Below, in pieces: positions 1 to 54,144 of a DNA stretch of 59,413 bases (its first letter is position 1; each line of letters begins with the position of its first letter). The stretch comes from an uncultured Candidatus Saccharibacteria bacterium (GTDB lineage Bacteria; Patescibacteriota; Saccharimonadia; UBA4664; CAZJNH01). The notes under the pieces were generated by a model, which worked only from the letters and a program-made list of their open reading frames with translations, searched no databases and had not been told where the DNA came from. Position numbers and translations under genes: made by a program. The stretch lies in the NCBI GenBank assembly GCA_964547425.1, contig CAZJNH010000003.1:1-59413 (forward strand), in the 5' to 3' direction.

Positions 1-3000
1 TTTCCTTTGACGTCGTCCAGTCGGTCCTGGCCGGCAACGGTCTAGGTACCAGTGGAGATGGCTTAGTTGTTAACACCGGCACTGGTTTGACGATTACCTC
101 CGACAATGTTGCCATCGACCAGGCTTCATCCCTAACTTGGACCGGTACCGAGACCTTTACACCGAGCGGTAGTAACGGCTTTGCTCTCAACTTAGATTCC
201 AACTCTTTAGCCACCATCAACCAAACCTTCACCTCCACCACTACCGCCGACGGCCTTACCTACACAATCACCAACCAATCCACTTCGGGAACCCAGCATG
301 GTCTGGTGATTTCCAACGCCGACGACGCGGCGAACGCCAGCACGGAAGGTTTACTGCAGATTAACAACAACGAAACAACCGCCAACACCGTCCCGGCCTA
401 TCTCCAGATCACCAAGGCTTCGACCGGCCCAGACACTACAGCCATCGCGTTGGATGTTTCGGACTCCGACCTTGGTGTCGCCCTAGCCATTGGTACCAAT
501 GACATTACAACTGGTGCAACTACCATCTCATCGACTGAACTGGATGTCCTAGACGGCGGCGTCAACTTCAACGAGATTGGCGCTGGCACCAACACCAATG
601 CTCTGGTCATTGGCTCTGGCGGCTCGCTCACCACCTCTGGTACCGGTACTATCACTGCCACCGATGTGGCTTGCACCGACTGTATAGCTCTAACCACTGA
701 GACTACCGGTAACTATGTGGCCTCCATCACCGCCGGTAATGGTTTAACCGGTGACGTGGCCTCTGAAGGTTCCACTCCAACCATCGCAGTCGCCTCCGCC
801 AACGGTGGCATTGTGGTCAACGCTGACAACATTGCACTAACCGTAGCACCTTCGGCTGACGGCCTGTCATCTACCACCTCATCCGGCTCCGGCCTGGAAG
901 TCCTTTCAACGGGGGTTGCCTTACTCCAGGGTTGTAGCGATACTCAAGTCCTGAAATGGAATGAAACCAGCGACGTTTGGGCATGTAATGCTGATGCGAC
1001 TGACAGTACTACATTGGCTGGCGCATACACTAACGGTTCGGCGGGGGACCAAACCATTACTCTAAGCACGGCCAATGACTCGATTATCATCAGCAACCCG
1101 TCATCTTCAGGTACGGATTCGACCTTTATGTTTGAGCTCAGTAACCTTTCTGGAACCGACAAGACAGGTCTCCTGATTGCATCGGCTGCTTCCGGGATGA
1201 CTAACGCGATCGATGCTTCCGATGCCGACATCGTGAACGCTCTGAATGTGGGTGCCAACACCATTACCGGCGCCGGTTACTTACTGACATCAACTGCTTC
1301 TGGTTTAACGGTCAACTCAACCTCGGCTGATCTTGCTCTGACCACTACAACCTCTGGCAACATCACCGTAACGCCAGGCGGAGCGGGCGATACCAGCTTC
1401 GGTATCGATGCCGACTCCGTTGTAAGCTTTACCGCCAGCGCGGTTCCGGCGATCGACATGGTAACCATCACCAACGCGGGCCAAGGGGTTACTACCTCCG
1501 GAGTAAGTGCTTTGCAAATTACCTATGCTGGTGGTTCCGGCGCGGTTGAATCTAGCGGCGAACGGATTGACTTAACGGCGGGAGGTACTGCCGCATCAAC
1601 CTGGAACGCGCTTCGAATAACGACCAGTGCTCCAGCAGCCGTTGCCATGACTGAAAACGCCTTAAAGATTGAGGGTGCAGCTGCTGGGTCAACCTCAACC
1701 CTCAATGGTGTGTTTCTTGCCAACGTCACTGGCGGTGCGGGTAATGAATATGGCTTCCATGTTGGGACTGGTTGGGACGCCGGCTTAGTCTTTGACGACA
1801 CCACGCCAACCATCAAACTTAACGCAACCGATAATACTGGTGTACTAAGCATTACTGACGCCTGTACGACCTCTTGTGCCGACGCAGGCACCGCAAACAA
1901 CAACCTGTTGCAGCTTCGGGACCTTAGCACTAACTTTGGTGCTGCTGTAACTTCCGGCGCGTTTATCAGCCGCAACTCGGCTTATGACGAGGAGTTCAAT
2001 ACCTTTAACGGCACGACTACCGGTTGTGTGACTAGCAACACGACTACAGAAACCAACACCTTGAATGCCCGGGGTGACTACGGCAGCCATGGTGGAACAA
2101 CCAGTCTATGCCAGGCTAACGCCGGTGAGCTTACTTTCAGCCTCAAACTCGGAGGTACTCTGGGCGGTAACCTCTGTAGCGCAACTCAGCTTTCAGATGC
2201 AACAGGAAACGTTAACGGTGTAGAGAGAATCACCGCAACTTCATCTGCTACCGCTACTAATACCGCGAACTGCGTTGAGACTCTTGGTGGCCAGACCGCC
2301 ACAACTTCCAACAAGATCTACGCTGCCGCAAACTTGCCTGTAATGGAGATGAAGGTAAGGCCTTCCACCCTTACCGCCTCGAGCAACAACGCTAGGGTTT
2401 ACATCGGTGCCGCTAACAGCAACACGGCTAACACCGGTAACGGCGCAGGCGAACCGCAAAACGGCATATTCTTTACGAACTGTTCTACATATAGCACAAC
2501 GGCCCCTACGGGCTGTAGTAATACTACTTGGTATGGAGTTGTCTCTAGCGCCGGCGCGGCCACGGTCGTTACGTGTACAGGTACAATGTCTACTACCAAA
2601 TTCGCGCTTTTGAGGATTGAGGTTAGAGGTAGCAGTGACGTGCACTTCTTTATCGACCCAGACGTCTCAAATGGTGTTAACGAGGTAGAATGTGGCACAG
2701 GAGCGGCCACCAATGTGCCTTCGGCCAACCTGGCCCCATGGGTACAAGCTATGTTTATGACTAACACCGCAACCTCTACGGTCCTTGACCTTGATTTCAT
2801 ACGGACCTGGCAAGACGACAACCAGCCAACGGGTGATACAAATGATCCCATCGATAGCCAAAGTGGTGTTTCCGATGACCCGTTACAGGTTGATAGCCTT
2901 TCGCCATCCGATCAATCGGGTAAGGATTCTGGATTCGACGGCAGAGTCTTGTTGTCGCAATTTATGGCGCAGACGGATGATGAGAACCAGGCTGTGTTGA

Positions 3001-4250
3001 CTTCGGGTAATGAGATCGATACTGATAGGTTGGTGGCGAAGGGTGCGATTGTGGCGCCGACTGTGACGACCGACAAGCTGCAAACTAATTCGGTGGAGGC
3101 GGCGACGGGGAAGGATATTACGCTTAAACCTGGTGCTGACGGCAAGGTCGCGATCCAGGGAGCCGATGGAGCTGTCGCGAGCATAGACGATAAAGGTAAC
3201 GCGGACTTTAACGGCTCCGTTTCGGCCGATCAGATAAGCGGTAACCAAGTGGTTGGAACCAATATCGGTCAGCGCTATTACACCAACGACTCGTCTCTCG
3301 AGGTCGGGGATCTGGTGTCGGTTGATCCGTCGCTCGAGCATGGTGTCAAAAAGGCTTCCGGGAAGAATGATCCGGGGCTGGTCGGTGTCGTGTCGACTGG
3401 ACCGGGCCTGATTGTGGGCGATATCCAGTCGCAGGGGACGGAAGTCATCGTGGCGGCCTCGGGAACCGTATCGGTCAAGGTTAATAAAGAAAACGGCGCG
3501 ATCGTGGCCGGAGATCCGCTAACATCATCTTCAACACCAGGAGTCGCGATGAAGGCAACTGGTAACGCGCCGATTATCGGGCGGTCCATTGACGCCTTCG
3601 ACGCCGATGGTGTTGGCCGAGTCCTCACGGTGGTAAACAATAGCGCCGGAACCAGCGCCGACCTATCAACTGAACTCAAGGGACTGTCCGACCGCGTCGC
3701 CCAGCTGGAGCAGAAGCTGCCGGCTGATGGTACTACTCAGACGGGGACAGACGCGACGGCTCAACCTACCGGTCAGCCTGCTCAGAGTGATCAAACTACA
3801 TTGCAGAACTTAAGCGTTCAATCCGAGACGGTAGCCATCGACCTAAACGTAATGGGAACCCTGGAAGTAGCTGGCGCGCTAACTATCGGTGGCCCGGCCG
3901 AATTCAAGGCGCCAAGTACCTTTGACTCGCTGGTAGCTTTCGTTGGTAACGCCATCTTCCACGGTAACGTCACCTTCGAGAAAGCGCCGACCTTTAGCAA
4001 CAACACCGCCGGGTTCGCGCTCATCAAGACCGGCGAGCAAACGGTTCACATCGACTTTACCGACGAATACGCCACGCTTCCGGTGGTCACTGCCAGTGTT
4101 GGCAACGGCAAATTCGCCAGCTACTCGATCAATAACGTCACCACCAAAGGCTTTGATATCGTGTTGAAGGACGTCTCAACCGATGACCTCAACTTCAACT
4201 GGATCGCCATCGCCGCCAAAGACGCCCAAACGGCGGTCAACCATCCCTAA
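1..4250 (+). CDS. giant Thr/Ser/Gly/Asn/Ala-rich secreted or cell-surface protein; the 5' end lies upstream of the window
   Basis: Frame 3 is open from the first bases of the window. The TTG at 87 is only the first start-like codon, so the gene continues upstream. It encodes >1,387 aa dominated by T/S/G/A/N/V with no internal TM segments. A coiled-coil-like 'LSDRVAQLEQKL' lies near 3,690. The many short antisense ORFs are shadows of this gene. Confidence 0.7.
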   Translation, partial: SFDVVQSVLAGNGLGTSGDGLVVNTGTGLTITSDNVAIDQASSLTWTGTETFTPSGSNGFALNLDSNSLATINQTFTSTTTADGLTYTITNQSTSGTQHGLVISNADDAANASTEGLLQINNNETTANTVPAYLQITKASTGPDTTAIALDVSDSDLGVALAIGTNDITTGATTISSTELDVLDGGVNFNEIGAGTNTNALVIGSGGSLTTSGTGTITATDVACTDCIALTTETTGNYVASITAGNGLTGDVASEGSTPTIAVASANGGIVVNADNIALTVAPSADGLSSTTSSGSGLEVLSTGVALLQGCSDTQVLKWNETSDVWACNADATDSTTLAGAYTNGSAGDQTITLSTANDSIIISNPSSSGTDSTFMFELSNLSGTDKTGLLIASAASGMTNAIDASDADIVNALNVGANTITGAGYLLTSTASGLTVNSTSADLALTTTTSGNITVTPGGAGDTSFGIDADSVVSFTASAVPAIDMVTITNAGQGVTTSGVSALQITYAGGSGAVESSGERIDLTAGGTAASTWNALRITTSAPAAVAMTENALKIEGAAAGSTSTLNGVFLANVTGGAGNEYGFHVGTGWDAGLVFDDTTPTIKLNATDNTGVLSITDACTTSCADAGTANNNLLQLRDLSTNFGAAVTSGAFISRNSAYDEEFNTFNGTTTGCVTSNTTTETNTLNARGDYGSHGGTTSLCQANAGELTFSLKLGGTLGGNLCSATQLSDATGNVNGVERITATSSATATNTANCVETLGGQTATTSNKIYAAANLPVMEMKVRPSTLTASSNNARVYIGAANSNTANTGNGAGEPQNGIFFTNCSTYSTTAPTGCSNTTWYGVVSSAGAATVVTCTGTMSTTKFALLRIEVRGSSDVHFFIDPDVSNGVNEVECGTGAATNVPSANLAPWVQAMFMTNTATSTVLDLDFIRTWQDDNQPTGDTNDPIDSQSGVSDDPLQVDSLSPSDQSGKDSGFDGRVLLSQFMAQTDDENQAVLTSGNEIDTDRLVAKGAIVAPTVTTDKLQTNSVEAATGKDITLKPGADGKVAIQGADGAVASIDDKGNADFNGSVSADQISGNQVVGTNIGQRYYTNDSSLEVGDLVSVDPSLEHGVKKASGKNDPGLVGVVSTGPGLIVGDIQSQGTEVIVAASGTVSVKVNKENGAIVAGDPLTSSSTPGVAMKATGNAPIIGRSIDAFDADGVGRVLTVVNNSAGTSADLSTELKGLSDRVAQLEQKLPADGTTQTGTDATAQPTGQPAQSDQTTLQNLSVQSETVAIDLNVMGTLEVAGALTIGGPAEFKAPSTFDSLVAFVGNAIFHGNVTFEKAPTFSNNTAGFALIKTGEQTVHIDFTDEYATLPVVTASVGNGKFASYSINNVTTKGFDIVLKDVSTDDLNFNWIAIAAKDAQTAVNHP

Positions 4251-4269
4251 TAAGATATAATTACTTGTA

Positions 4270-5961
4270 ATGCTAAGAGGGTGGAAGAAACTGTTATTGG
4301 TATTGCTGGGCTGTATTAGCCTCAGCTTCTTGCTTTACGCCTTCAGCTTGCACGGCGCTTTTGTCCGAGACGACTTTTTATACGCCGACCGTACAGATCT
4401 TCATACTAAATCGGCGCTTTGGCATTTGTGGGGCCAGTCTTATACACCACTGAACAACCACATCGGGGTTTATCGGCCTTTGACGTTATCGACTTTTGCT
4501 ATTAATTTCATTGTTTTCGGCGGTGGTACGACCAGCTTCCATGTCGTCAACGTTATTCTCAACGGAGTGGTTATTTGGCTGGTTTTCCTTCTGGTACAAG
4601 CATTATTTGACGACGATAATCTAGCAATCCTGGCGGCACTTTTGTTCGCGTTCTTGCCGATACATACCGAAGCCATCGCGTTCGTTAAGTCCAGGGATGA
4701 GATATTGGCGGCGTTATTCGGTCTTCTTTCCTGGTTGAGTTTCATTTATTCGCAGAAAAAGAAAAAACTAAAATACCTCTGGCTGTCGCTCAGCTCGGCT
4801 TTTTTTGTACTGACCCTGCTCTCAAAAGAAACCCTGCTTACATTACCTGCGATTTTTATATTGGTGGCCTGGCTAAGAGGGGAAGCGAAAAAAATCAAAG
4901 AACTTATAGCGATTGGCTTGATCTATGCCGTGCCGCTGATACCGTACTTTTTTCTCCGCTGGCGCGTCTTAGGCCCTTCTGCGTTCGGAAACGACAATGC
5001 ACTTTATGACATCAACCCCCTTAAAGATGCAGGATTTATTACTAGATTCGCGACTGGGTGCAAGCTGGCGTTTTTGATGTTAGGCAAAACCCTCTTACCT
5101 CTGAATCTAACCGCTACATACAACTTCAACAGCGTACCCTTGATATCCAATGTCTTCAGCTCGTGGGAGGCAGTTGTAGGGCTGCTAATGCTGCTGGCTT
5201 TACTGTTCGCAGCGATTTGGCCCAAGTTCCCGAAGATGATACGAGTTGGGAGTATCGTTTTGCTCGTGAGCTACTTTATGGTTTCAAAATTTCTCTTCTC
5301 GGGCGGGGAAATAACCGGTGAACGCTGGATGTATTTTCCTTCAATCGGCTTAGTTTTAATTGGCGCCTATTTACTCGAGAAAGCGTTCAAAAAGAAAGAG
5401 TGGATTGGACTGGCTATTTTGGCTCCATTGCTCGCTTGGTATGGCTATGCCGCTATTAATCGCAACCTTGCCTGGATAAACCAGAAGACGTTAGGAGAAA
5501 GTATGATAAAGACCTCTCCCAACAGCGTTGTTAGCTACCTTTCCCTAGCTGGCTGGTACTACACCAGACAAGAGTATCCTGAGGCTGAGAAAGTAATAGA
5601 CAGAGGTAAGCAAGTGGATCCCCACTACCCACCGCTACAAGAATTTGTTGGCCAGTTGGAGTTCAAAAAGCACAATTACGAGGCCGCGGCAGCGGCTTAT
5701 CGAGACGCAATCGAACACCACGATCAGGAATATTTTACTTTTGTTTCGTACGCTCAAAGCCTAACCAAAGCCCATCATTATCTCGATGCCATCGACCTTA
5801 TCGATAATGTACTAAAACCCACATTCAAGGATCCTCAGCTGGAGTTCATAAAATCGGTCTGTTACTTCAGGCTGGGGAATAACAAAAAAGCCCTGGAATA
5901 CTTTGACTGGGGACCAAACTTAACTCTGGAGCAAAAGTGGATTCACGTAAAAGAGTACTAA
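4270..5961 (+). CDS. polytopic membrane GT-C-type glycosyltransferase with C-terminal TPR-like repeats (TMTC/PMT/ArnT-like), paralog 1
   Basis: 563 aa with about 10 hydrophobic segments. An acidic 'FSLHGAFVRDD' motif follows TM1. The blocks 'GVYRPLT', 'FAFLPIHTEAIAFVKSRDE' and 'ERWMYFPSIG' are shared with 7533..9254. The C-terminal ~150 aa are helical-repeat (TPR-like) with Y/A/E-rich pairs. Confidence 0.65.
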   Translation: MLRGWKKLLLVLLGCISLSFLLYAFSLHGAFVRDDFLYADRTDLHTKSALWHLWGQSYTPLNNHIGVYRPLTLSTFAINFIVFGGGTTSFHVVNVILNGVVIWLVFLLVQALFDDDNLAILAALLFAFLPIHTEAIAFVKSRDEILAALFGLLSWLSFIYSQKKKKLKYLWLSLSSAFFVLTLLSKETLLTLPAIFILVAWLRGEAKKIKELIAIGLIYAVPLIPYFFLRWRVLGPSAFGNDNALYDINPLKDAGFITRFATGCKLAFLMLGKTLLPLNLTATYNFNSVPLISNVFSSWEAVVGLLMLLALLFAAIWPKFPKMIRVGSIVLLVSYFMVSKFLFSGGEITGERWMYFPSIGLVLIGAYLLEKAFKKKEWIGLAILAPLLAWYGYAAINRNLAWINQKTLGESMIKTSPNSVVSYLSLAGWYYTRQEYPEAEKVIDRGKQVDPHYPPLQEFVGQLEFKKHNYEAAAAAYRDAIEHHDQEYFTFVSYAQSLTKAHHYLDAIDLIDNVLKPTFKDPQLEFIKSVCYFRLGNNKKALEYFDWGPNLTLEQKWIHVKEY

Positions 5962-6341
5962 GTCCGAACAGGGAGGGTATTACTTCCAGGAGATTATGGG
6001 AAATCGTTGCAATTATTGCCGTATCAACAGTGCTGCCGACGATCCTGCTACTAGGCTCTTACCACAAGGCTGTTGCAAGGTTTGAGGCTTTAAGTGAGTT
6101 GAGCCCGGCAGAACACACTAAAAAAGTAATCGAACTTGTTAACGCGTTAATACCAACTCAAAGTGATGAAATACCAGAGGTACTAACTTTGATTGACCCC
6201 TCAAAACTCCCGAATGATCCGTTTTTTAAAGATGCTCAAAAGGACGACGAGTACTTGATCTACCACGTCAGCGGGCGGCAGGTTTTATATAGGCCATCCG
6301 ACAACAAGATCATCAACAAGTCAGGATTTTCTACACCTTAA
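5937..6341 (+). CDS. small N-terminally membrane-anchored protein of the 'FFKDAQ..D..LIY....LYRPS..KII' family, paralog 1
   Basis: 134 aa with one TM helix ('LWEIVAIIAVSTVLPTILLLG'). The C-terminal motif 'FFKDAQKDDEYLIYHVSGRQVLYRPSDNKIIN' is shared with 9241..9618 and 10447..10848. The GTG start overlaps the 3' end of the upstream GT-C gene. Confidence 0.55.
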   Translation: MDSRKRVLSPNREGITSRRLWEIVAIIAVSTVLPTILLLGSYHKAVARFEALSELSPAEHTKKVIELVNALIPTQSDEIPEVLTLIDPSKLPNDPFFKDAQKDDEYLIYHVSGRQVLYRPSDNKIINKSGFSTP

Positions 6342-6375
6342 GTTTGTAGGCGACGGCCATGCCTTGGTTGAAGTG
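6337..6375. repeat. left copy of a ~40-bp direct repeat; a degenerate duplicate of the methyltransferase gene 3' end
   Basis: 'ttaag-tttgtaggcgacggccatgccttggttgaagtg' recurs at 6886..6931. The 35-bp core 6341..6375 is identical to 6897..6931. The left copy lacks 7 bp ('ccgtcag'). Confidence 0.9.
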
Positions 6376-6383
6376 GACGCATT

Positions 6384-6412
6384 TTGATGTTTTGATGCAT
6401 TGATGATATGCT
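6384..6412 (+). promoter_or_regulatory. putative promoter/operator of the toxin-antitoxin operon
   Basis: TTGATG(6384-6389)-17 nt-TATGCT(6407-6412), ending 6 nt before the ATG at 6419, which suggests a near-leaderless mRNA. Three 'TTGATG' direct repeats spaced 8 nt apart could be an operator. Confidence 0.4.
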
Positions 6413-6418
6413 TTGACT

Positions 6419-6637
6419 ATGAGAACAACTATTACGCTGAACGACAAAATCTATAAGGCACTGAAGGTAAGAGCGGCTGAAAGTGGAGAGTCTATCTCGG
6501 CTATGGTTGAGGACGCAATAAAATACCAAGTCCTCGAAGACTTAGCGGACATTAAGGCTATCGAAGAGCGGAAGAATGAGCCATCCATCGATCTAGATAC
6601 ATTCGTGAAGTCTCTCAAAGCCGATGGCCTCCTTTAA
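6419..6637 (+). CDS. ribbon-helix-helix (CopG/RelB-type) antitoxin
   Basis: 'MRTTITLNDKIYKALKVRAAESGESISAMVEDAIK' is a typical RHH N-terminus. The gene overlaps the downstream RelE-like gene by 14 nt. The ATG at 6419 is preferred over the TTG at 6413. Confidence 0.75.
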   Translation: MRTTITLNDKIYKALKVRAAESGESISAMVEDAIKYQVLEDLADIKAIEERKNEPSIDLDTFVKSLKADGLL

Positions 6638-6890
6638 AGTCGAGCTTAAGAAGTCTGCCAGCAAGGAAATCCGGAAACTACCAAAGTCTGTCCGCCAAAA
6701 AGTAATCGCGAAGATCCAGAGGCTGGCGAATAACCCTATTCCTGCATGGGCAGAAAAAATCGCCGGTACAGAAGCTACTTATCGTTTAAGGCAAGGTGAC
6801 TATCGTATCTTGTACGAGGTTGAGGGCAAACGGCTTATCGTCCTAATTATTCGAGTGGCTCATCGGCGCGAAGTCTATCGCAATCTTTAA
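6624..6890 (+). CDS. relE: RelE/ParE-family (RelE/StbE-type) toxin
   Basis: 88 aa. 'YRLRQGDYRILYEVEGKRLIVLIIRVAHRREVY' matches the conserved RelE/StbE C-terminal core. It forms a two-gene operon with the upstream RHH antitoxin. Confidence 0.85.
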   Translation: MASFKVELKKSASKEIRKLPKSVRQKVIAKIQRLANNPIPAWAEKIAGTEATYRLRQGDYRILYEVEGKRLIVLIIRVAHRREVYRNL

Positions 6891-6931
6891 GCCGTCAGTT
6901 TGTAGGCGACGGCCATGCCTTGGTTGAAGTG
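6886..6931. repeat. right copy of the direct repeat; this is the functional 3' end of the methyltransferase gene
   Basis: The reverse complement encodes '...HFNQGMAVAYKLTA*', the C-terminus of the 6887..7519 ORF. See 6337..6375. Confidence 0.9.
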
Positions 6932-7519
6932 AGTGACTTTTCTGATTGTTAGCCCCGTTGATTTGATGGTTTTCTCGAGGTGGTCTATAGAGAAGTGGCC
7001 CATATGGGCGTTGTGCCAGACCTTGCCTTTGAACTTTTCCCAGATGCCGAAGACGATGCGAAAAGGGAGATTGCCTGAGTCTACTTCGATAATGATTGTG
7101 CTGCCGGGCTTAACGACTCGCTTCATCTCGGCGATCGCGACGGAAATGTCGTAAAGGTGCTCGATAACTTCTGTGCAAATTACAACATCGAATGAGCCGG
7201 ACTTGAAGGGAAGCTTGTGGGCGTCGGCTTGCTGGAGGTCCAGTTTCCGGTAGCGTTTCTTCCCGTAGGTGATCGCATCGGGGTAAAGATCTACGCCGGT
7301 CAGCTGAGTTTTGGGAAACCGTTTTGAGACTTCATTGAGGAACCAGCCGGAGCCGCAGCCGACGTCGAGGATGGTTTTCGCATCGGCGGGAATAAGGTCG
7401 AGAACGGCCCGTAGTTTGCCTAGGTGCCAGATTTTCTGCAGCCAGTTTAAGGTCTGGTAATAGTCCGGCGGGACTTGCTCCAAAATCTTCTTTAGTTTGG
7501 CATCAGGTTGGGCTGGCAT
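6887..7519 (-). CDS. class I SAM-dependent methyltransferase
   Basis: Motif I 'ILDVGCGSGWF', an acidic post-I 'GVDL', and 'FDVVICTEVIEHL'. 210 aa. The ATG lies 13 bp from the divergent GT-C paralog 2 start. Confidence 0.8.
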   Translation of the reverse strand: MPAQPDAKLKKILEQVPPDYYQTLNWLQKIWHLGKLRAVLDLIPADAKTILDVGCGSGWFLNEVSKRFPKTQLTGVDLYPDAITYGKKRYRKLDLQQADAHKLPFKSGSFDVVICTEVIEHLYDISVAIAEMKRVVKPGSTIIIEVDSGNLPFRIVFGIWEKFKGKVWHNAHMGHFSIDHLEKTIKSTGLTIRKVTHFNQGMAVAYKLTA

Positions 7520-7532
7520 ATACTTTAGTGTA

Positions 7533-9254
7533 ATGCTTAAGGGGTTTTTGGTTAAGAACCGTTATTGGCTGGTGGCGCTCGGTTTCTGCCTGGCCATCAG
7601 CTTTATTTTGTACGGCTTTAGCCTCCACGGCGCGTTCGTGCGCGATGACACTTTGTTTTCGCCGCGGACCGATCTGCACTATGCCGGATCACTCGGGCAG
7701 GTATGGTTCCAGACATATATTCCGGGCATCCGGGAGGTTGGGGTTTACCGCCCATTAACGATTTTTACGTTTGCGCTGAACTTCGTCGTCTTTGGGTCAT
7801 CGACGGTTAGCTTCCATGTCTTTAACGTCATATTAAACGCGCTGAACATTTTCCTGGTCTTCGCCATTTTGCGCCGGCTTTTCAAAGAAGAGATGGTAGC
7901 GATTTTCGGCGCCGCGGTGTTTGCTTTCTTGCCAATCCACACCGAGGCGGTCGCCTTCATTAAATCCCGCGATGAGTTGCTGGCGACGTTCTTTAGTTTG
8001 CTGGCTTGGCTGGTTTTTATCCGGGCCACCAAGGCGAAGGAGATTAACTTCAAGAAGCTGTGGCTCTCCGCCGGCTTTTTTGTGCTGGCCGTTCTAGGAA
8101 AGGAGACTTTGTTTAGCGCTCCGGGAGTATTCTTGGCGGTGTGGTGGATGATGGATCGGCCTAAAATTAAGGATCTGGCCCGGGTTGCCTCGGTTTACGC
8201 GACCGCCGGAGCTGGCTATTTATTGTTGAGATTGTCGGTTCTTCACCAATACGCTTTCGGTAACGACAACGGTGAGTTTGTGGTGAACCAGCTGGTCGGG
8301 GCCAGCTTAGCGGAGCGCTTGGTGACCGGGTGTAAGATTGCCTTTTTGATGTTTTCAAAGAGCTTTGTGCCGTGGAATTTGAGTTCGGTTTATAACTACA
8401 ACCAGGTACAGGTAACTTCGAATCTGTTTGGATCCTGGCAGGCTTTAGGCGGTCTAGCGATGTTGCTGGGGTTATTGGCGCTGGTTGTAATGGGAATCAG
8501 GAACAAAGCCTGGCAGTGGGCGGGAGTCGGCGCGGCGATCACTCTAATCTCCTACGCCATGGTTTCGAAGATGATCTTTTCGGGCGGGGAGTTCGCGGCT
8601 GAGCGGTGGATGTATTTTCCGTCGATCGGCTTTGCTCTAATTCTGGGCTGGGGGATCGCTTGGCTCTACCGGCAGAAACAGTGGCTAGGGTTGGCAGTAG
8701 GCGGTGCTTTACTGCTTTACTACGGTGCCGTCACGGTGCCGCGCAACTTTGCTTGGCTAAACTCCCGGACCGTCATCGACAGCTTGCTGAAGAGCGCGCC
8801 AAAGGCCGCCATAACCTACCAGACGCAAGCGTCATGGTATCTGGACCACGGCGACCCTAAAGCCTGCGAGATTGCCGCCAAAAAGGCGTTGGCAATCTAC
8901 CCCGATTACTGGGAGGCGTACGAAATGCTGTCCAGGGCGGCCTTTGCCGAGGGCGACTGGGCGGCCAACGACCGTTACTTTACGCGGGCCTACCAGCTGG
9001 CGGCACCTTACACTACTATCCGCAGCCGGATCAGCCACGCGGAGGCGCTACTGCGGTTGAAACGTTACAAAGACGCTATCGCTGCCGCCCAACAGGTAAT
9101 GAGGTTGGCGCCGACGAGGGAAGCGTATCTAATTATCGCGGCGGGCAGCTATAAGCTCTACGGCCTCGACGTTGCCAAACACTTTTTGGGCCGCAGCGGC
9201 TTTCCGGTCAACGAGGAAATCAGGCAGATGAAGGAGCTACTTGGTGAAAAATAA
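7533..9254 (+). CDS. polytopic membrane GT-C-type glycosyltransferase with C-terminal TPR-like repeats, paralog 2
   Basis: Aligns end to end with 4270..5961 ('MLKGF...FSLHGAFVRDD', 'FAFLPIHTEAVAFIKSRDE', 'ERWMYFPSIG'). The start is set at ATG 7533 by alignment with paralog 1. The ORF-track TTG at 7497 would overlap the divergent methyltransferase. Confidence 0.65.
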   Translation: MLKGFLVKNRYWLVALGFCLAISFILYGFSLHGAFVRDDTLFSPRTDLHYAGSLGQVWFQTYIPGIREVGVYRPLTIFTFALNFVVFGSSTVSFHVFNVILNALNIFLVFAILRRLFKEEMVAIFGAAVFAFLPIHTEAVAFIKSRDELLATFFSLLAWLVFIRATKAKEINFKKLWLSAGFFVLAVLGKETLFSAPGVFLAVWWMMDRPKIKDLARVASVYATAGAGYLLLRLSVLHQYAFGNDNGEFVVNQLVGASLAERLVTGCKIAFLMFSKSFVPWNLSSVYNYNQVQVTSNLFGSWQALGGLAMLLGLLALVVMGIRNKAWQWAGVGAAITLISYAMVSKMIFSGGEFAAERWMYFPSIGFALILGWGIAWLYRQKQWLGLAVGGALLLYYGAVTVPRNFAWLNSRTVIDSLLKSAPKAAITYQTQASWYLDHGDPKACEIAAKKALAIYPDYWEAYEMLSRAAFAEGDWAANDRYFTRAYQLAAPYTTIRSRISHAEALLRLKRYKDAIAAAQQVMRLAPTREAYLIIAAGSYKLYGLDVAKHFLGRSGFPVNEEIRQMKELLGEK

Positions 9255-9618
9255 ATCGTTCGGTCTGAAGTTACCGGCTGTGGTGATTGTTTTGGCGGCT
9301 TTGCTGCCGGCCGCTTACTTTTTCGGCACGTACCGGAGTATTGTTAACCGAGTTGACCCAAAAACCGTTGATCAAGAGACGCTTCCGGAGAGCGCCGCCG
9401 ATATCGTGAATAAATTAGTCGTGGTTCCGGGCGACGAGGCGCCGGAGCAGCTGACCGTGCCCAAGGCCTCGCATCTGCCGGCGAATTTTATATTTAAGCA
9501 GGCCCAGGAAAATGATATCGTCCTGCTTTACCAGCACGCAGGCCAGGCGATTTTATACCGCCCATCGACAGGGAAGATTATCGCGGAGTATCCGGCAGAC
9601 TCGTTTCGGAAGCGCTAG
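9241..9618 (+). CDS. small N-terminally membrane-anchored protein of the 'LYRPS..KII' family, paralog 2
   Basis: 125 aa with TM 'LPAVVIVLAALLPAAYFFG' and C-terminal 'IFKQAQENDIVLLYQHAGQAILYRPSTGKIIA'. The TTG/GTG start overlaps the stop of the GT-C paralog 2 gene by 14 nt. Confidence 0.55.
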   Translation: MVKNKSFGLKLPAVVIVLAALLPAAYFFGTYRSIVNRVDPKTVDQETLPESAADIVNKLVVVPGDEAPEQLTVPKASHLPANFIFKQAQENDIVLLYQHAGQAILYRPSTGKIIAEYPADSFRKR

Positions 9619-10321
9619 GCGGCTCAGTTGAACTTATCTTGAGGATTTTTATACAGCTTTCGAAAAAGACATGCCAACTTAGTTTGGAAATTCCAGTAAC
9701 GCGTTGAGTGAAGGTTATCGGTACTTCGCTGATCGAAAAACCTAACTGGCTGGCGTAGTAGGCGGTCTCAGGAAGGAAGACATAGCCAGCGGAATCCAGT
9801 CGGAGCTTGAGGATTTGGGTCAGTGCCTCCGGTTTCCAGCAGCGGTAGCCGGTGGTGGCGTCTTTGATCTTAAGGTTAAGGATTTGCCGGGCGTAGAGGT
9901 TTGCCATTCGGGACAGGATCCTCCGCCAAGTTTCCCACTTTTCGATCCGCCCGCCCGGTATGTAGCGCGAACCGATAACCAGGTCGGCGTCTTGTCGAAG
10001 CATTCGGGGGATGACTCTGGGGTCGTGTGAGAGATCGGCGTCCATCTGAATGACGCGGTCGGGATTCTGTTTGAGTGCCGCTCTGATACCGGCCAAACAT
10101 GCCGAGCCGTAGCCGGTTTTGCGGGAGCGGTGGACGACTTCGATTGGCCGTTTTTTGGCGAGGGTATCGAGAATATCCCCGGTGCCGTCAGGTGAATTAT
10201 CATCGACCGCGACCAGACGGAGATTGGGGACCCCAACTTTAAACAAACGCTCAACGTATTGGGTGATGTTTTCGGCCTCGTTGTAGGTCGGGATTACGAC
10301 CATGATCTTGGCGGGTTTCAT
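9578..10321 (-). CDS. polyprenol-phosphate sugar synthase (GT2, Dpm1/Ppm1-like dolichol-phosphate mannosyltransferase family)
   Basis: 'MVVIPTYNEAENI', 'VAVDDNSPDGTGD', 'QMDADLSHDP', 'VIGSRYIPGG' and 'DATTGYRCW' form the canonical GT2 Dpm1-type motif series. Confidence 0.85.
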   Translation of the reverse strand: MKPAKIMVVIPTYNEAENITQYVERLFKVGVPNLRLVAVDDNSPDGTGDILDTLAKKRPIEVVHRSRKTGYGSACLAGIRAALKQNPDRVIQMDADLSHDPRVIPRMLRQDADLVIGSRYIPGGRIEKWETWRRILSRMANLYARQILNLKIKDATTGYRCWKPEALTQILKLRLDSAGYVFLPETAYYASQLGFSISEVPITFTQRVTGISKLSWHVFFESCIKILKISSTEPPSASETSLPDTPR

Positions 10322-10341
10322 TTAGCCATTATACAAACCCG

Positions 10342-10370
10342 TTGCGAAGGATAAGAGTATTGGTTAGAAT
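10342..10370 (+). promoter_or_regulatory. sigma70-type promoter upstream of small-protein paralog 3
   Basis: TTGCGA(10342-10347)-17 nt-TAGAAT(10365-10370). Confidence 0.55.
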
Positions 10371-10384
10371 GTGGTAAAACAAAA

Positions 10385-10423
10385 AGCTTATCCAGATAGG
10401 GCGGATAAGCTATTAATTTTTTA
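10385..10423 (+). terminator. terminator-like hairpin inside the 5' leader of paralog 3
   Basis: A 9-bp perfect stem, AGCTTATCC(10385-10393)/GGATAAGCT(10403-10411), followed by the T-rich 'attaatttttta'. It lies between the promoter and the RBS/GTG at 10447. Confidence 0.45.
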
Positions 10424-10446
10424 CGGAACTAAACGAAGGAGGAGGA

Positions 10447-10848
10447 GTGTTCAAAAAGACCGCAATCGTAGTGCTCGTACTAGTTGTCGCAGGAGGTGCT
10501 GTCTTCGGAGCCAGCAAGTACAAGAAATTAAGGGATGAGAACAACAAGCTCAAGAACCCGCAGGAGCAGGCTCGGATCCAGACCGACAACCTGGTTAAAG
10601 ACGTAGGCAAGATTACCGTTTTGCCGACGGACGAAACCCCGACCGTCGCTACGGTGGCCGATGCTTCTAAGCTCAAGAACCAGGCGTTCTTCAAAGACGC
10701 CCAAAACGGTGACAAGGTGTTGATTTACACCAAGGCCAAGAAAGCGTATCTGTACCGCCCGTCGACCAACAAGATCATCGAGATCGCTCCGGTCAACATT
10801 GGCTCCAGTACTAAGTCTACGACCCCGGCAAAGACAACGACCAAGTAG
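10447..10848 (+). CDS. small N-terminally membrane-anchored protein of the 'LYRPS..KII' family, paralog 3
   Basis: 133 aa with TM 'TAIVVLVLVVAGGAVFGA' and C-terminal 'FFKDAQNGDKVLIYTKAKKAYLYRPSTNKIIE'. A strong SD 'GAAGGAGGAGGA' lies directly upstream of the GTG. Confidence 0.6.
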   Translation: MFKKTAIVVLVLVVAGGAVFGASKYKKLRDENNKLKNPQEQARIQTDNLVKDVGKITVLPTDETPTVATVADASKLKNQAFFKDAQNGDKVLIYTKAKKAYLYRPSTNKIIEIAPVNIGSSTKSTTPAKTTTK

Positions 10849-10862
10849 AGTTCGCAACTAGA

Positions 10863-10889
10863 AAGCGGTCGCCTTCGCGGCCGTTTTTT
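10863..10889 (+). terminator. intrinsic terminator
   Basis: AGCGGTCGC-CTTC-GCGGCCGTT hairpin (with G-U pairs) followed by TTTTTT. Confidence 0.7.
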
Positions 10890-10909
10890 AGTATATTTGT
10901 ACTTCGCGC

Positions 10910-10986
10910 GGGTCCTTAGCTCATTTGGTTAGAGCGCTTCCTTGACGTGGAAGAGGTGACTGGTTCGAATCCAGTAGGACCCACCA
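10910..10986 (+). tRNA. tRNA-Val (anticodon GAC), CCA encoded
   Basis: Acceptor stem GGGTCCT/AGGACCC, anticodon stem CTTCC/GGAAG with loop TTGACGT, T-arm ACTGG-TTCGAAT-CCAGT, 3' ACCA. Confidence 0.93.
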
Positions 10987-10989
10987 TTC

Positions 10990-11065
10990 GGACCTGTGGC
11001 TCAGCGGTTAGAGCACTGCATTCACATTGCAGGGGTCGTTGGTTCGAATCCAACCAGGTCCACCA
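10990..11065 (+). tRNA. tRNA-Val (anticodon CAC), CCA encoded
   Basis: Acceptor stem GGACCTG/CAGGTCC, anticodon stem CTGCA/TGCAG with loop TTCACAT, T-arm GTTGG-TTCGAAT-CCAAC, 3' ACCA. Confidence 0.93.
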
Positions 11066-11096
11066 GAATTTATTCCTCATACGCTATACTGTCTTT

Positions 11097-12944
11097 ATGC
11101 CTGACAAAGCCAAAAAACCAGTCGATTTGGAATCCTTACGCCATACCCTGGCGCATACTTTGGCGGCCGCGGTGCAGTTGATGTATCCGAAAACCAAGTT
11201 TGGTGTCGGTCCGACGGTTGAGGACGGTTTTTACTATGATCTAGATCCGGGGGTAACAATTTCGCCCGAGGATTTGCCAAAGATCGAAGCCAAAATGAGA
11301 AAGCTGATTGAGCAAGATCTGCGGCTGGAGCGCTTTGACCTCAAGATTGACGCGGCGATCAAACGCTACGAAGCGGAAAAGCAGCCCTACAAAGTCGAGC
11401 TGCTAAAAGATTTGAAACAGCACGGGACGACCAGCCAAAAAGAGATAAGCGTAACAGATATGGGAGTGGAAAAGGTTGTTGATAAAGTTACAACTGTATC
11501 CTTCTATCGGCTGGGGAAATTCGAAGATCTCTGTAGGGGTCCGCACTTGGATTCGACCGGGCAAATTGGTGCCTTCAAACTATTGCGGGTCTCGGGGGCG
11601 TATTGGCGAGGCAACGAGAAAAATCCTCAACTCCAGCGCATTTACGGTGCCGCCTTTGCAACCGATAAAGAACTCGCCGATTATCTGAAAATGCTCGAAG
11701 AGGCCGAGAAGCGGGACCACCGTAAGCTAGGAAAAGACTTAGACCTATTTGTGTTTTCCGATTTAGTTGGTTCAGGCTTACCGCTATGGACCCCTCGAGG
11801 AACGATCCTGCGAACTGAGGTTGATCGCTACGTCCAATCACTGCGCGGTCAGTATGGCTACGAAGAAGTGGCGATTCCGCACATCACTAAGAAAGACTTA
11901 TACGAAAAAAGCGGCCACTGGGCCAAGTTCGCCGACGAACTCTTCAGAATAAAGACTCGCGAGGGCCACGAGTTTGCGATGAAGCCGATGAACTGCCCGC
12001 ACCACGCCCAGATCTACGCCAGCCGCCAGCGCAGTTACCGAGATTTGCCGATCCGCTACCGGGAGACGACGATGGTTTACCGAGACGAGCAGTCGGGTGA
12101 GCTCGGTGGTTTGTCTCGAGTCAGAGCTATTACTCAGGACGATGCCCACGTCTTTTGCCGCAAAGATCAAGTCAAAGACGAGGTACTTAAGATCTGGGAC
12201 ATTGTCGAGAAATTTTACAAGACTATGGGTATGCCGGTGCGACTAAGACTATCTCTACATGACCCGGCTGAGAAGCAGGCCTATCTCGGCGATGAAAAAA
12301 TGTGGAAGGAGCTTGAGGGTGAACTAAAGGCTTTGGCCGACAAGAAGGTTAAAAAATATGAGGTTGGGATTGGCGAAGCTGCTTTCTACGGTCCGAAACT
12401 CGACTTTATGGCCAAGGACGCCATTGGCCGGGAGCATCAAGTGGCCACCATCCAACTCGACTTCAACCAACCCGAAGGCTTTGATTTGACCTGCGTAAAC
12501 GAGAAGAGTGAAGCGGAACGGATTGTCATGATCCATGCCGCCATCGCCGGCTCCTTCGAGCGTTTCTTGGCGGTCGTCATTGAGCATTTCGCGGGCAAGT
12601 TCCCGCTGTGGCTGTCGCCGGAGCAAGTTAGGCTGATTGTCGTCAATGACACAAAGTCCTTAGCTAAATTCGCTAGCACCATTGAGACCCAGCTAAACCA
12701 GGCGGGTTTGAGAGTCTCGGTCGACAGCTCGAATGAATCGGTCGGCCGCAAGATCCGCGAGGCTGAATTGATGAAGGTGCCTTATACGCTAGTGGTCGGA
12801 GACAAAGAGGCCAAAAGTGGGAAGGTTACTCCAAGAATTAGATCGGAGCATGGTTCCGAGAATCCAAAAGAGATCAGCATCGGCCAATTCATCGCCACCC
12901 TCGCAACCGAATACGAATCCCGCGCCCCCCGCTCGAGCCTGTAA
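11097..12944 (+). CDS. thrS: threonine--tRNA ligase, short form lacking the N-terminal TGS domain
   Basis: Starts 'MPDKAKKPVDLESLRHTLAHTLAAA' (the SAD/editing HxxxH motif is at residue ~15). Class II motifs 'FAMKPMNCPHH', 'YRDEQSGELGGLSRVRAITQDDAHVF' and 'GPKLDF' are present, followed by an anticodon-binding C-terminus. The ORF-track start at 10947 is rejected because it runs through two tRNA genes. Confidence 0.92.
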   Translation: MPDKAKKPVDLESLRHTLAHTLAAAVQLMYPKTKFGVGPTVEDGFYYDLDPGVTISPEDLPKIEAKMRKLIEQDLRLERFDLKIDAAIKRYEAEKQPYKVELLKDLKQHGTTSQKEISVTDMGVEKVVDKVTTVSFYRLGKFEDLCRGPHLDSTGQIGAFKLLRVSGAYWRGNEKNPQLQRIYGAAFATDKELADYLKMLEEAEKRDHRKLGKDLDLFVFSDLVGSGLPLWTPRGTILRTEVDRYVQSLRGQYGYEEVAIPHITKKDLYEKSGHWAKFADELFRIKTREGHEFAMKPMNCPHHAQIYASRQRSYRDLPIRYRETTMVYRDEQSGELGGLSRVRAITQDDAHVFCRKDQVKDEVLKIWDIVEKFYKTMGMPVRLRLSLHDPAEKQAYLGDEKMWKELEGELKALADKKVKKYEVGIGEAAFYGPKLDFMAKDAIGREHQVATIQLDFNQPEGFDLTCVNEKSEAERIVMIHAAIAGSFERFLAVVIEHFAGKFPLWLSPEQVRLIVVNDTKSLAKFASTIETQLNQAGLRVSVDSSNESVGRKIREAELMKVPYTLVVGDKEAKSGKVTPRIRSEHGSENPKEISIGQFIATLATEYESRAPRSSL

Positions 12945-20910: not shown

Positions 20911-21576
20911 CTAGGACTTGTTGGCCTTGATGTACTCAATGACCTCCATTCTTTTCTCCCAATCGATACGGCCAGTATCCGTATAGTGGTTGAGAAGACC
21001 TTCGAGAGTCAGCACAGCCGTCAGGTAGTACCCGGCTGCCAGTAGCTGCTCGGCGCCTCCTTGTTGCCGATCAACCAGCACCAGTATGTCCCGGACCAGC
21101 ATTTCCAGGCTCATCACGGCGCCTATGGCCTCGAACTTGCTGTCGGCCTGGGTGATCAAGTCATCGGTCAACAACACGATCTTGCCGGGCGTACCGGCTT
21201 GACCCTCGGCCACTATCCGCCGTTTTCCATCGGTTTCGACTTTGCCGAGCCGTAGCTGCGGTTTGGCATTCTTGCCGAGCGCCTTCGTTACGACGTCCGC
21301 AAAGGGATCGCCGGCGTTTGGTATGCCGGCAAGGTAGTCGAAGTGGAGACGAGGCGTGTACTCGATGACATCGGCCATAGCCCGGCCAATCAACTCCAGC
21401 GCTTCATCGGTCAAGGGGCCGGGCTTAGGGTTGTCCCGTGTCCGCAGATTCAAGTAGATCGGGGACAGCGGCGCGTCCGGTTGTGTTTCGTGCAGCTTGA
21501 GCTTGAAAGCGCCGAACTGGATTGCCCCGAGCTCGAAAAGCAGGTCAGCTACTTCGCCGTACAGCCCTTTGTACAT
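20911..21576 (-). CDS. pyrE: orotate phosphoribosyltransferase-like PRTase
   Basis: 'GAIQFGAFKLKLH', 'SPIYLNLR' and the PRPP-binding motif 'KIVLLTDDLITQADS'. It sits directly downstream of pyrF. Confidence 0.7.
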   Translation of the reverse strand: MYKGLYGEVADLLFELGAIQFGAFKLKLHETQPDAPLSPIYLNLRTRDNPKPGPLTDEALELIGRAMADVIEYTPRLHFDYLAGIPNAGDPFADVVTKALGKNAKPQLRLGKVETDGKRRIVAEGQAGTPGKIVLLTDDLITQADSKFEAIGAVMSLEMLVRDILVLVDRQQGGAEQLLAAGYYLTAVLTLEGLLNHYTDTGRIDWEKRMEVIEYIKANKS

Positions 21577-22308
21577 TTACGCCTCCTTACTGGCGAGGAT
21601 GTGACCGACGATCTTGTCCCAGTTTTCGGCTGGGTTGCTCGTCAGATCGCGGCCTATCACCAACCGTGTCGCGCCGGCTTCCAAGGTTCCGCCGGGTGTG
21701 CCGACTCGAGCCTGGTCGTCTTGGCTCGAGCTTGGCAGTCTGATCCCCGGCACGTTGAGGGCCAGGGAGTCAAAGCGACTCTCCGATCGGATCGCCGCAA
21801 CTTCTTCGGTCGAGCACACCACATCAGTGAAGCCGGCGATCAGCAGCTGCTCGACGTAGTAGAGAACTTGGTCGACGCTGCTCCGGCCGTTGAACTCCTC
21901 GCGCACAACTTCGGCCGATTTGCTGGTCAATACAGTTACGCCACAGGGCCGAGTGCCGACGCTGTGGCAAGCGTCTGCGAATTGCATCAGGCCATCGAGT
22001 TGTTCGGCTTCACTGTAGACACCGTTAGAGATCGCCCCAGCCATGCAGTTGAGCATCCATGGGCGGTGTTTCAGGTGCTTCTCCGCGATGGCGGCCAGCT
22101 TCGACGGGATCTCGATGATCTTGGCGTCGTCGAAGACCAGCAGGCCTCTGTCGTTAAGCCGATCGATGACGCTGTGGTCGGTCCCGGTCAGGAACAACCG
22201 GTCGACCTTAATCGCCTTGAGATGTGGAAGCCGGTCCAGGCATCCCATCATCGTCTCCTCATCCGGTACGTCTGCACTCCAAATGATGACTTCATCTGCG
22301 TTTGGCAT
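21577..22308 (-). CDS. pyrF: orotidine 5'-phosphate decarboxylase
   Basis: 'IKVDRLFL', 'FDDAKIIEIPSK' (D-x-K..D/E-I-P motif) and a C-terminal 'RLVIGRDLT'. The operon context includes pyrE, pyrC and pyrD. Confidence 0.7.
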   Translation of the reverse strand: MPNADEVIIWSADVPDEETMMGCLDRLPHLKAIKVDRLFLTGTDHSVIDRLNDRGLLVFDDAKIIEIPSKLAAIAEKHLKHRPWMLNCMAGAISNGVYSEAEQLDGLMQFADACHSVGTRPCGVTVLTSKSAEVVREEFNGRSSVDQVLYYVEQLLIAGFTDVVCSTEEVAAIRSESRFDSLALNVPGIRLPSSSQDDQARVGTPGGTLEAGATRLVIGRDLTSNPAENWDKIVGHILASKEA

Positions 22309-22399
22309 CCCGCCTCCTTGTTGTCAAAACTGCCACCGTTAAGTCTCGAGGTATTCTATGCCGACTGATCTGGTTTGGCAATTGAAAGAGCCCGGATCA

Positions 22400-37391: not shown

Positions 37392-37454
37392 GGCTATCTG
37401 GAGTAAGCGTAACAGCTTTGCCCTGATTTGGCGAGTTACGGCAAGCAACCTAAA

Positions 37455-54094: not shown

Positions 54095-54144
54095 AACACT
54101 TTTTAACAGGTAAGCCAATCTGTCTGGCTGTATACTGAAATCAG

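Follow-up and report, generated by a model that had tools for sequence, protein, structure and literature searches.

A probable protein O-glycosylation locus of a Saccharibacteria-like bacterium in which TMTC-like GT-C/TPR proteins are encoded beside a giant Thr/Ser-rich protein

We analysed a 59,413-nucleotide stretch of DNA (the window) from an uncultured Saccharibacteria bacterium (contig CAZJNH010000003.1), the left end of which encodes a giant Thr/Ser-rich protein, two membrane proteins of the GT-C glycosyltransferase type that end in tetratricopeptide repeats (TPR; GT-C1 and GT-C2), a Dpm1-like lipid-sugar synthase of family GT2, a methyltransferase and three small membrane proteins (sp1, sp2 and sp3). 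Working from genomics only, we judge it probable that these genes serve protein O-glycosylation in a Saccharibacteria-like bacterium, that they follow the logic of Dpm1 plus PMT/TMTC-type protein O-mannosyltransferases, and that the GT-C proteins modify the giant. GT-C homology, a Dpm1-like GT2 and the synteny of the giant together make this a reading that fits all of the computational evidence. An original prediction, made from the letters of this DNA, had proposed donor synthesis plus two extracytoplasmic transferases that decorate the giant: the genes that it listed are all present at the coordinates that it gave, and the scheme agrees with the analyses below, with glycosylation itself still inferred.

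The gene order around related GT-C genes matches what the glycosylation hypothesis predicts, in a pattern that is hard to get by chance. A scan of one genome per species yielded 79 GT-C loci, in which we called open reading frames (ORFs) that were then searched with the proteins of the window. About 22 of these belong to a close GT-C subfamily (E<1e-70), and 17 have enough upstream sequence to be informative. A large ORF of 1,100–2,200 aa with 18–28% Thr+Ser lies upstream on the same strand in 13 of these 17 loci, within 2.6 kb of the GT-C gene; in several of them the two frames abut or overlap, and one additional locus (L017) has a truncated giant. Among the 45 loci of the distant subfamily, a large upstream ORF is found in seven; only two of these are Thr/Ser-rich, and both are homologs of the giant in the window. 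Bearing in mind that the giants beside GT-C genes come from at least two unrelated families, we take the pairing to argue for function and not for shared ancestry. In the window itself, the stop codon of the giant gene and the start of GT-C1 are separated by 19 nt, with no terminator in between. The presence of two GT-C genes, which had been thought unusual, turns out to be common: at least nine of the roughly 22 close loci hold two to four GT-C/TPR genes. We also observed a larger version of the arrangement in Yanofskybacteria (L004/L006; JACPNJ010000005.1, 1–17070), where two giants without a Pfam domain (>1,259 aa and 1,205 aa) are followed by a run of four successive same-strand GT-C/TPR or PMT_2 genes.

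GT-C1 (4270..5961, plus strand; 563 aa) and GT-C2 (7533..9254, plus strand; 573 aa, or 574 codons with the stop) are 43% identical over 531 aa (E=8e-141), which is far beyond chance, and they share the motifs by which they were initially recognised as paralogs. C-terminal TPR matches to Pfam occur in both proteins (aa 410–548), and GT-C2 alone reaches PMT_2 (E=8e-8, above the gathering score). GT-C1 shows no match to Pfam TMTC_DUF1736 even at E≤1, and GT-C2 shows none at E≤0.01. This model is reached by 5 of 18 subfamily members (best E=7.9e-10), and the proteins of the window are thus a divergent sister branch that should be called TMTC-like rather than TMTC proper. One of the same 18 members matches PF02366 (PMT). 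The nearest relatives, at 35–45% identity, are found in Roizmanbacteria, Yanofskybacteria, Saccharibacteria and other Patescibacteria; remoter homologs carry PMT_2 or TMTC_DUF1736, and the homology search extended to a vertebrate (sturgeon) TMTC1 at E=1.2e-26.

The predicted fold leads to the same superfamily. An AlphaFold (AF2) model of full-length GT-C1 has a predicted local distance difference test score (pLDDT) of 89, and Foldseek returned only TPR proteins for it, the TPR domain having swamped the signal from the membrane domain; a profile of the full-length alignment, run against PDB sequences, was swamped in the same way and again retrieved TPR proteins only. A profile limited to the transmembrane (TM) part retrieved nothing from PDB sequences, the solved GT-C enzymes being too distant for a search of a hidden Markov model (HMM) against sequences. 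We therefore rely on a TM-only AF2 model of residues 1–405 (pLDDT 86.5, predicted TM-score 0.90), for which the top 19 Foldseek matches in the PDB are all GT-C enzymes. Its matches include AglB, STT3, DPY19, Pmt4, AftA, PglB, Pmt1/2, ALG3/9 and EmbB; the best is AglB (3waj, E=1.7e-4, TM-score 0.56), and Pmt4 also reaches 0.56. Below the top 19, matches with a probability >0.4 (ALG9, EmbB) are also GT-C enzymes, and transporters stay <0.2. The GT-C fold and the homology to TMTC proteins, on which the original prediction had hinged, were both found. Neither the sequence search nor the fold search turned up a TMTC among solved structures.

The AF2 models show 11 membrane helices in GT-C1, followed by a TPR domain of about 10 helices (4–5 hairpins; aa 405–563). 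Segments rich in Lys and Arg occur at the N-terminus and at residues 162–168, 203–208, 317–321 and 375–377, in a positive-inside pattern. Taken together, the modelled helices and this charge distribution predict an N-terminus that is inside, with the DD, KET and ER..Y loops, extracytoplasmic loop (EL) 4 and the TPR domain all outside; this is the topology that has been deduced for human TMTCs (PMC7801869). The loop FSLHGAFVRDD, which had been pointed out together with the 19-nt spacing and the TPR C-terminus, is indeed present in GT-C1, and its D34-D35 pair lies directly after TM1, so that a modelled GT-C helical core is accompanied by an acidic motif in the first extracytoplasmic loop, as in the GT-C superfamily at large. 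D34-D35 is invariant in 27 subfamily members and also in a set of 11 sequences that includes an animal TMTC1. The complete list of invariant positions in the 27 homologs is D34, D35, R69, P70, P130, I131, R142, K186 and E351; conservation is at least 90% at H132, T133, E134, E187 and R352.

Seven conserved motifs (M1–M7) have been described for the TMTC family (PMC7801869, Table 4). When aligned with them, the GT-C proteins of the window contain M1 (DD), M4 (KETxxT) and M7 (ERxxY), plus the PIHTE stretch; M2 (SHKSYRP) is cut down to YRP, and M3 (RxD) is seen as R142-D-E. From the models and these alignments, we conclude that GT-C1 and GT-C2 belong to a divergent bacterial branch and almost certainly act as GT-C transferases. 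A polyprenyl-phosphate-sugar donor is indicated only indirectly, by the Dpm1-like GT2 and by K186 and R352 as putative equivalents of phosphate-binding residues; transfer of the sugar to Ser/Thr of a protein we infer only, from homology and synteny. That bacterial GT-C proteins with a TPR domain are uncharacterised, as had been proposed, holds for the literature that we searched, in which we found no characterised bacterial member and a sole paper on DUF1736, which notes merely that prokaryotic homologues exist; yet the proteins are very common, with 112,621 cluster representatives for the membrane domain at E≤1e-3.

The 3' part of the giant gene occupies 3..4250 on the plus strand (1,415 codons), with a frame that is open from base 3 and cut by the left edge of the window. 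Its product contains 14.5% Thr, 9.9% Ser, 11% Gly and 11.7% Ala, is also rich in Asn, and is low in Lys, Arg and Glu. The description of this protein as extremely Thr/Ser-rich was right as to rich but not as to extremely: Thr+Ser is about twice that of an average protein, the giant is not mucin-like, and we found no tandem repeats in the DNA of the gene. Its C-terminal module (aa 1003–1410; C1, 1003–1085; C2, 1085–1216; C3, 1266–1410) is common to L005, L009, L017, L018, L019, L022, L026, L064 and L087, and has just 47 relatives, all of them unannotated. The extreme C-terminal end (aa 1347–1403; window 4039–4209) gives a sub-threshold H_lectin match, at 22.6 bits against the Pfam cut-off of 24 bits; ahead of it we noted a conserved domain of about 130 aa (aa 1085–1216) and a short coiled-coil-like stretch. 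The giant has no match in PDB or PHROG. A single hydrophobic N-terminal signal or anchor segment is present in 10 of the 10 examined giant ORFs that include the N-terminus, homologs of the window type in L018 and L087 included, which is consistent with export. Conserved synteny makes the giant the presumed glycosylation acceptor.

The Dpm1-like GT2 (9578..10321, minus strand; 247 aa; Glycos_transf_2, E=4e-26) has the dolichol-phosphate mannose (DPM) synthase of Pyrococcus as its best solved relative (5mlz, E=1.9e-33, residues 4–229 aligned). It keeps the motif series of such synthases (VDDxSPDxT, MDADLxH with its DAD, IGSRY and EVPxTFxxRxxGxSK), so that the assignment as a Dpm1/Ppm1-type enzyme stands; GtrB- and ArnC-type enzymes are matched at E of about 3e-9 to 4e-9. 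The best NCBIfam match is AglJ, at 65 bits against an equivalog cut-off of 325, and all other equivalog cut-offs (PpgS, ArnC and others) are missed as well, so that sugar and lipid specificity is not assignable; we presume that the enzyme is a polyprenyl-phosphate-hexose synthase. The class I S-adenosylmethionine (SAM)-dependent methyltransferase (6887..7519, minus strand; 210 aa) is confirmed by Methyltransf_11 (E=4e-26). It is predicted to be cytoplasmic (no TM segment), and finds only generic relatives in the PDB. Homologs of it occur in 9 of the 79 GT-C loci, directly beside the GT2 gene in L009, L019, L021 and L046.

We hypothesize that these proteins act in the following sequence. On the cytoplasmic face, the anchorless GT2 would use a nucleotide sugar to charge polyprenyl phosphate with a hexose, and the lipid-linked sugar would then be flipped across the membrane, presumably by a factor encoded outside the locus. 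On the outer side, the two 11-TM GT-C paralogs would transfer the sugar to Ser/Thr hydroxyls, in a reaction that may depend on the invariant Asp-Asp loop, the K-E pair of KETxxT and the E-R pair of ERxxY. The acceptor, as conserved synteny suggests, would be the Sec-exported giant, the gene of which lies immediately upstream, and this protein would dock on the TPR domain that faces outward; the two paralogs probably differ in their preference for acceptor site or donor. The methyltransferase may, speculatively, methylate the sugar or the lipid carrier, and the small proteins, which are membrane-anchored, are not obligatory partners.

Several observations weigh against this scheme. No giant lies upstream in 4 of the 17 informative close loci (L007, L011 and L016 are examples); conversely, in L087, no GT-C, GT2 or methyltransferase gene stands between a homolog of the giant and the sp3-type gene that follows it. 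Since the giant of the window is cut at the left edge, its own signal sequence lies outside the window. The proposed synteny is conserved for giant and GT-C but weak for the GT2 gene, which is found within 10 kb in 12 of the 79 loci and in 6 of the roughly 22 close ones. Nor does the locus appear to be self-contained, as had been claimed: a Pfam scan of 37 ORFs of the window, which was near-complete from 12.9 to 24.3 kb (one 112-aa ORF skipped) and partial elsewhere (most ORFs under about 200 aa fell outside it), detected no flippase gene, GtrA-type flippases included, and no gene for sugar activation or sugar nucleotides. The GT2 consists of a catalytic domain only, with no hydrophobic or TM segment in its 247 aa; PfDPMS, GtrB and yeast Dpm1 are unlike it in that C-terminal TM helices anchor them to the membrane. 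Human DPM1 and the catalytic domain of mycobacterial Ppm1 likewise have no TM helices, and need a membrane partner. As for the transferases, GT-C1 matches none of the Pfam GT-C models even at E≤1, the metal-binding DW of M5 is replaced by TY/VY and the PxxP of M6 is missing (SYFM instead) in both proteins, with DY and PxxP both retained in remoter bacterial homologs such as P0033. Moreover, lipids and glycopolymers are also among the acceptors of GT-C enzymes.

The last of these points leads to an alternative that we consider rather unlikely, namely a three-component system of the Gtr, CsbB-YfhO or ArnC-ArnT type, in which the GT-C proteins decorate a non-protein envelope polymer (a teichoic-acid-like glycopolymer, a peptidoglycan-linked glycan or a lipid) and the giant merely shares the same island of surface genes. 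Gtr/YfhO/ArnT systems have exactly this architecture of a GT2 paired with a GT-C, the GT2 has detectable relatives in ArnC and GtrB, Foldseek also finds the arabinosyltransferases AftA and EmbB, and the window holds further envelope-glycan genes (26182–28712 and 37428–38597); the case for the giant as acceptor, too, is one of gene neighbourhood. Yet the sequence relatives of the GT-C proteins are protein O-mannosyltransferases of the TMTC/PMT type and not YfhO, GtrC or ArnT, a GtrA-type flippase gene is missing from the scanned ORFs, and the TPR, which is a protein-binding module, is here predicted to face outward. A generic surface island would also hardly explain why same-strand adjacency to unrelated Thr/Ser-rich giants is specific to one subfamily.

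A second alternative keeps protein as the acceptor and differs in breadth: a general O-glycosylation system for which the giant is one abundant substrate among many, and the small proteins with Ser/Thr-rich tails could be others (sp3 ends in SSTKSTTPAKTTTK). Actinobacterial Pmt is an enzyme with many substrates of this kind, and characterised bacterial enzymes of the PMT type are indeed broad, as in Caldicellulosiruptor bescii, where deletion of the GT39 gene Cbes_1864 abolishes glycosylation of the secreted glycoproteins altogether (PMC6151902), and both the close loci without an adjacent giant and the L087 giant without an adjacent GT-C would fit such a system. We nevertheless think it unlikely: eukaryotic TMTCs and TMEM260 are specific for protein classes (PMC11292533, PMC10214176), and specialised pairs of enzyme and substrate are suggested by the arrays of two to four divergent GT-C/TPR paralogs beside giants and by the faster divergence of the GT-C than of the giant (42–43% versus 68% identity with L005, below). 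Finally, the missing DW and PxxP motifs, the failure of GT-C1 against Pfam and the frequent absence of a linked donor synthase might lead one to regard the TPR/GT-C proteins as having lost catalysis and as helping instead to export or anchor the giant, in the role of membrane-anchored TPR chaperones or assembly factors. We view this as highly improbable, given that the conservation of DD, K186 and E351 (invariant) and of E187 and R352 in the 27 homologs is unexpected for a non-enzyme, and that a Dpm1-like GT2 belongs to the locus. We accordingly continue to favour O-glycosylation of the adjacent giant.

The closest known parallel to that reading is the eukaryotic pathway of TMTC1–4 and DPM1. 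Both combine a GT-C domain of 11 TM helices and cytoplasmic N-terminus with a non-cytoplasmic TPR domain, both display DD (EL1), YRP, PIHTE, KE(T)xxT (EL3) and ERxxY (EL5), and in both the donor synthase is likely to be a GT2 of the Dpm1 type. The proteins of the window, however, are bacterial, have about 4–5 TPR hairpins as compared with 8–12 in TMTCs, and lack the SHK of SHKSYRP along with DW, PxxP and the TMTC_DUF1736 match; their candidate acceptor is the adjacent giant, in contrast to the cadherin EC domains that TMTCs modify. Among bacteria, actinobacterial Ppm1/Pmt (GT39) and Cbes_1864 of C. bescii similarly combine a polyprenyl-phosphate-sugar synthase with a GT-C for Sec-exported Ser/Thr-rich proteins, and the Cbes_1864 gene lies close to that of its acceptor CelA (PMC6151902). 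The GT-C proteins studied here differ in that they form another GT-C family, with weak PMT_2 matches and PF02366 confined to the single member mentioned above; they also have a C-terminal TPR domain, which the actinobacterial and C. bescii enzymes lack, and arrays of paralogs and tight synteny of enzyme and acceptor are typical of loci of the window type.

The GtrA/GtrB/GtrC, CsbB/GtcA/YfhO and ArnC/ArnT systems share the placement of a GT2 synthase gene beside that of an extracytoplasmic GT-C, but their acceptors are O-antigen, teichoic acids and lipid A, a small flippase gene is usual, their GT2 has C-terminal TM helices and their GT-C has no TPR. Archaeal S-layer glycosylation by AglJ or DPM synthase and AglB offers both the nearest matches of the GT2 (AglJ and the Pyrococcus enzyme) and the nearest fold of the GT-C (AglB); the score of the GT2 is nonetheless far under the AglJ cut-off, and AglB, an N-oligosaccharyltransferase, differs in its soluble domain and has a WWDYG motif. 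The logic of Dpm1 plus TMTC/PMT and of actinobacterial Ppm1/Pmt is already known, and the locus is not categorically new. What is new here is a TMTC-like branch of bacterial enzymes in which the TPR domain is short and the metal-site motifs are altered, the systematic pairing of this branch with giants in Patescibacteria, and a unit of GT-C plus small protein that behaves like a cassette, as described below.

A wider proposal, which we put forward tentatively and regard as possible at most, is that Patescibacteria use their TMTC-like GT-C/TPR enzymes as O-glycosyltransferases that are each coupled to one substrate, the adjacent giant; that the animal TMTC pathway has its prokaryotic counterpart, and perhaps its ancestor, in these enzymes; and that an exchangeable cassette of GT-C plus small protein diversifies the surface glycan coat. 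If this were so, the cassette would vary the glycans on the adhesin or main surface protein of the cell, perhaps in response to phages or host cells in an episymbiotic lifestyle. Whatever the fate of that proposal, the pairing with giants provides a very large uncharacterised family with concrete pairs of enzyme and acceptor that could be reconstituted, so as to establish which sugar is transferred, to which sites, and what the TPR domain does; such bacterial pairs would also be informative for the human TMTC enzymes, with no TMTC found among the solved structures. A 2024 preprint (10.1101/2024.11.25.624915) describes glycosylation in Saccharibacteria as 'unexplored'. These ultrasmall episymbionts attach to their host by way of their surface, and should the giant be a glycosylated adhesin or a surface-layer component, the locus would give a handle on the biology of that attachment.

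The history of the locus can be approached through its closest relative, L005 (a Saccharibacteria metagenome-assembled genome (MAG); L005:2-7328), which is collinear with the window: giant, methyltransferase (minus strand), GT-C, small protein, GT2 (minus strand) and sp3, followed by a 615-aa ORF in place of the threonyl-tRNA synthetase (ThrRS) of the window. It has a single GT-C, which is the positional counterpart of GT-C2, and no toxin-antitoxin (TA) pair. Identity with the window is 68% for the giant, 59% for the methyltransferase, 63% for GT2 and 81% for sp3, whereas it is only 42–43% for GT-C and 38–39% for the small protein adjacent to it; the pair of GT-C and small protein hence evolves or is exchanged faster than its flanks, and on this comparison appears to behave as an exchangeable cassette within a conserved locus. 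The ancestral gene order was probably that of L005, to which a second cassette of GT-C plus small protein was presumably added between giant and methyltransferase, and later the TA module described below. GC content falls to 0.44–0.47 over 4270–6890 (GT-C1, for which it is 0.457, sp1 and the TA pair), as compared with 0.52–0.54 in the flanking genes for the giant, the methyltransferase, GT-C2 and GT2, which suggests acquisition from elsewhere. GT-C1, GT-C2, the GT-C of L005 and a further homolog (P0002) are all about 40–46% identical pairwise, and with four GT-Cs about equally distant we rejected a recent duplication.

The 28-nt leaders of the two GT-C genes bear on the same question. The leader of GT-C1 (4255..4282, plus strand) has a TATAAT box, and that of GT-C2 (7518..7545) is 75% identical to it, each with its box (TATAAT/TATACT) 8 nt before the ATG; a further promoter-like site lies ahead of GT-C2 at 7497–7524. 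Such similarity hints at individual promoters for the two genes, with leaderless or near-leaderless mRNAs, the promoter function being predicted from the boxes. The shared leader and the equal distances among GT-Cs also keep an old duplication possible as the source of the second GT-C, beside an outside origin.

The original prediction did not mention the TA pair (6413–6890), the GC dip or the right boundary of the locus. A RHH (CopG-type) antitoxin gene (6413..6637, plus strand; Pfam RHH_1, E=5.6e-7) overlaps by 14 nt that of a ParE/RelE-family toxin (6624..6890, plus strand; Pfam ParE_toxin, E=1e-13); adjacency and matching domains are those of a type II TA system, and the pair is an addiction module that stands outside the glycosylation machinery. 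A direct repeat of 40 nt, 95% identical between its two copies (6336..6375, no strand, and 6892–6931), brackets the pair. What is repeated are the final codons of the methyltransferase gene; the C-terminus of that protein is intact, with two altered residues. The 556-bp module has the appearance of a discrete insertion where the ends of the sp1 and methyltransferase genes converge.

The small proteins sp1 (5937..6341, plus strand; 134 aa, TM segment at aa 23–41), sp2 (9241..9618, plus strand; 125 aa) and sp3 (10447..10848, plus strand; 133 aa) are mutual paralogs with one TM segment each and a shared core, FFKDAQ..D..LIY...LYRPS..KII. The sp1 gene overlaps the stop of GT-C1 by 25 nt and the sp2 gene that of GT-C2 by 14 nt. 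We tried, and rejected as a general rule, the idea that they are dedicated partners of the GT-C proteins, as the original prediction had it: the family, a large one of Saccharibacteria, has >1,620 members and is usually not found next to a GT-C, and a family-wide HMM finds it in just 4 of the 79 GT-C loci. No relative was found in Pfam, NCBIfam, PHROG or PDB. The sp3 gene is the conserved 'housekeeping' type of the family, and in other Saccharibacteria its counterpart has KGG, ROK kinase, S1 and IF-2 genes as neighbours, in surroundings that lack a GT-C. In a Saccharibacteria MAG (CAYUFM010000002.1, L087:682-5510), a 1,419-aa homolog of the giant (E=1e-66) is followed directly by an sp3-type gene. 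Since no transferase intervenes in that order, it may be the giant, and not the transferase, with which the small protein is associated.

On its right side, the locus is closed by a strong hairpin that resembles an intrinsic terminator (10857..10892, plus strand; 16-bp stem and T run), 3' of which lie two tandem tRNA-Val genes (10910–11065; anticodons GAC and CAC). The ThrRS ORF, as called from GTG 10947 (10947–12944), runs through both tRNA-Val genes, and the true start of the synthetase is therefore further downstream, around MPDKAKK. Elsewhere in the window we noted a Bac_transf phosphoglycosyl transferase with a GT4 glycosyltransferase (26182–28712), a GalT-like uridylyltransferase beside a glycosyltransferase that resembles MGDG synthase/GT28 (36435–38597), and three ORFs of 770 aa (51998–54310, minus strand), 341 aa (21343–22368, plus strand) and 336 aa (38858–39868, plus strand) with no Pfam match at E≤1e-4.

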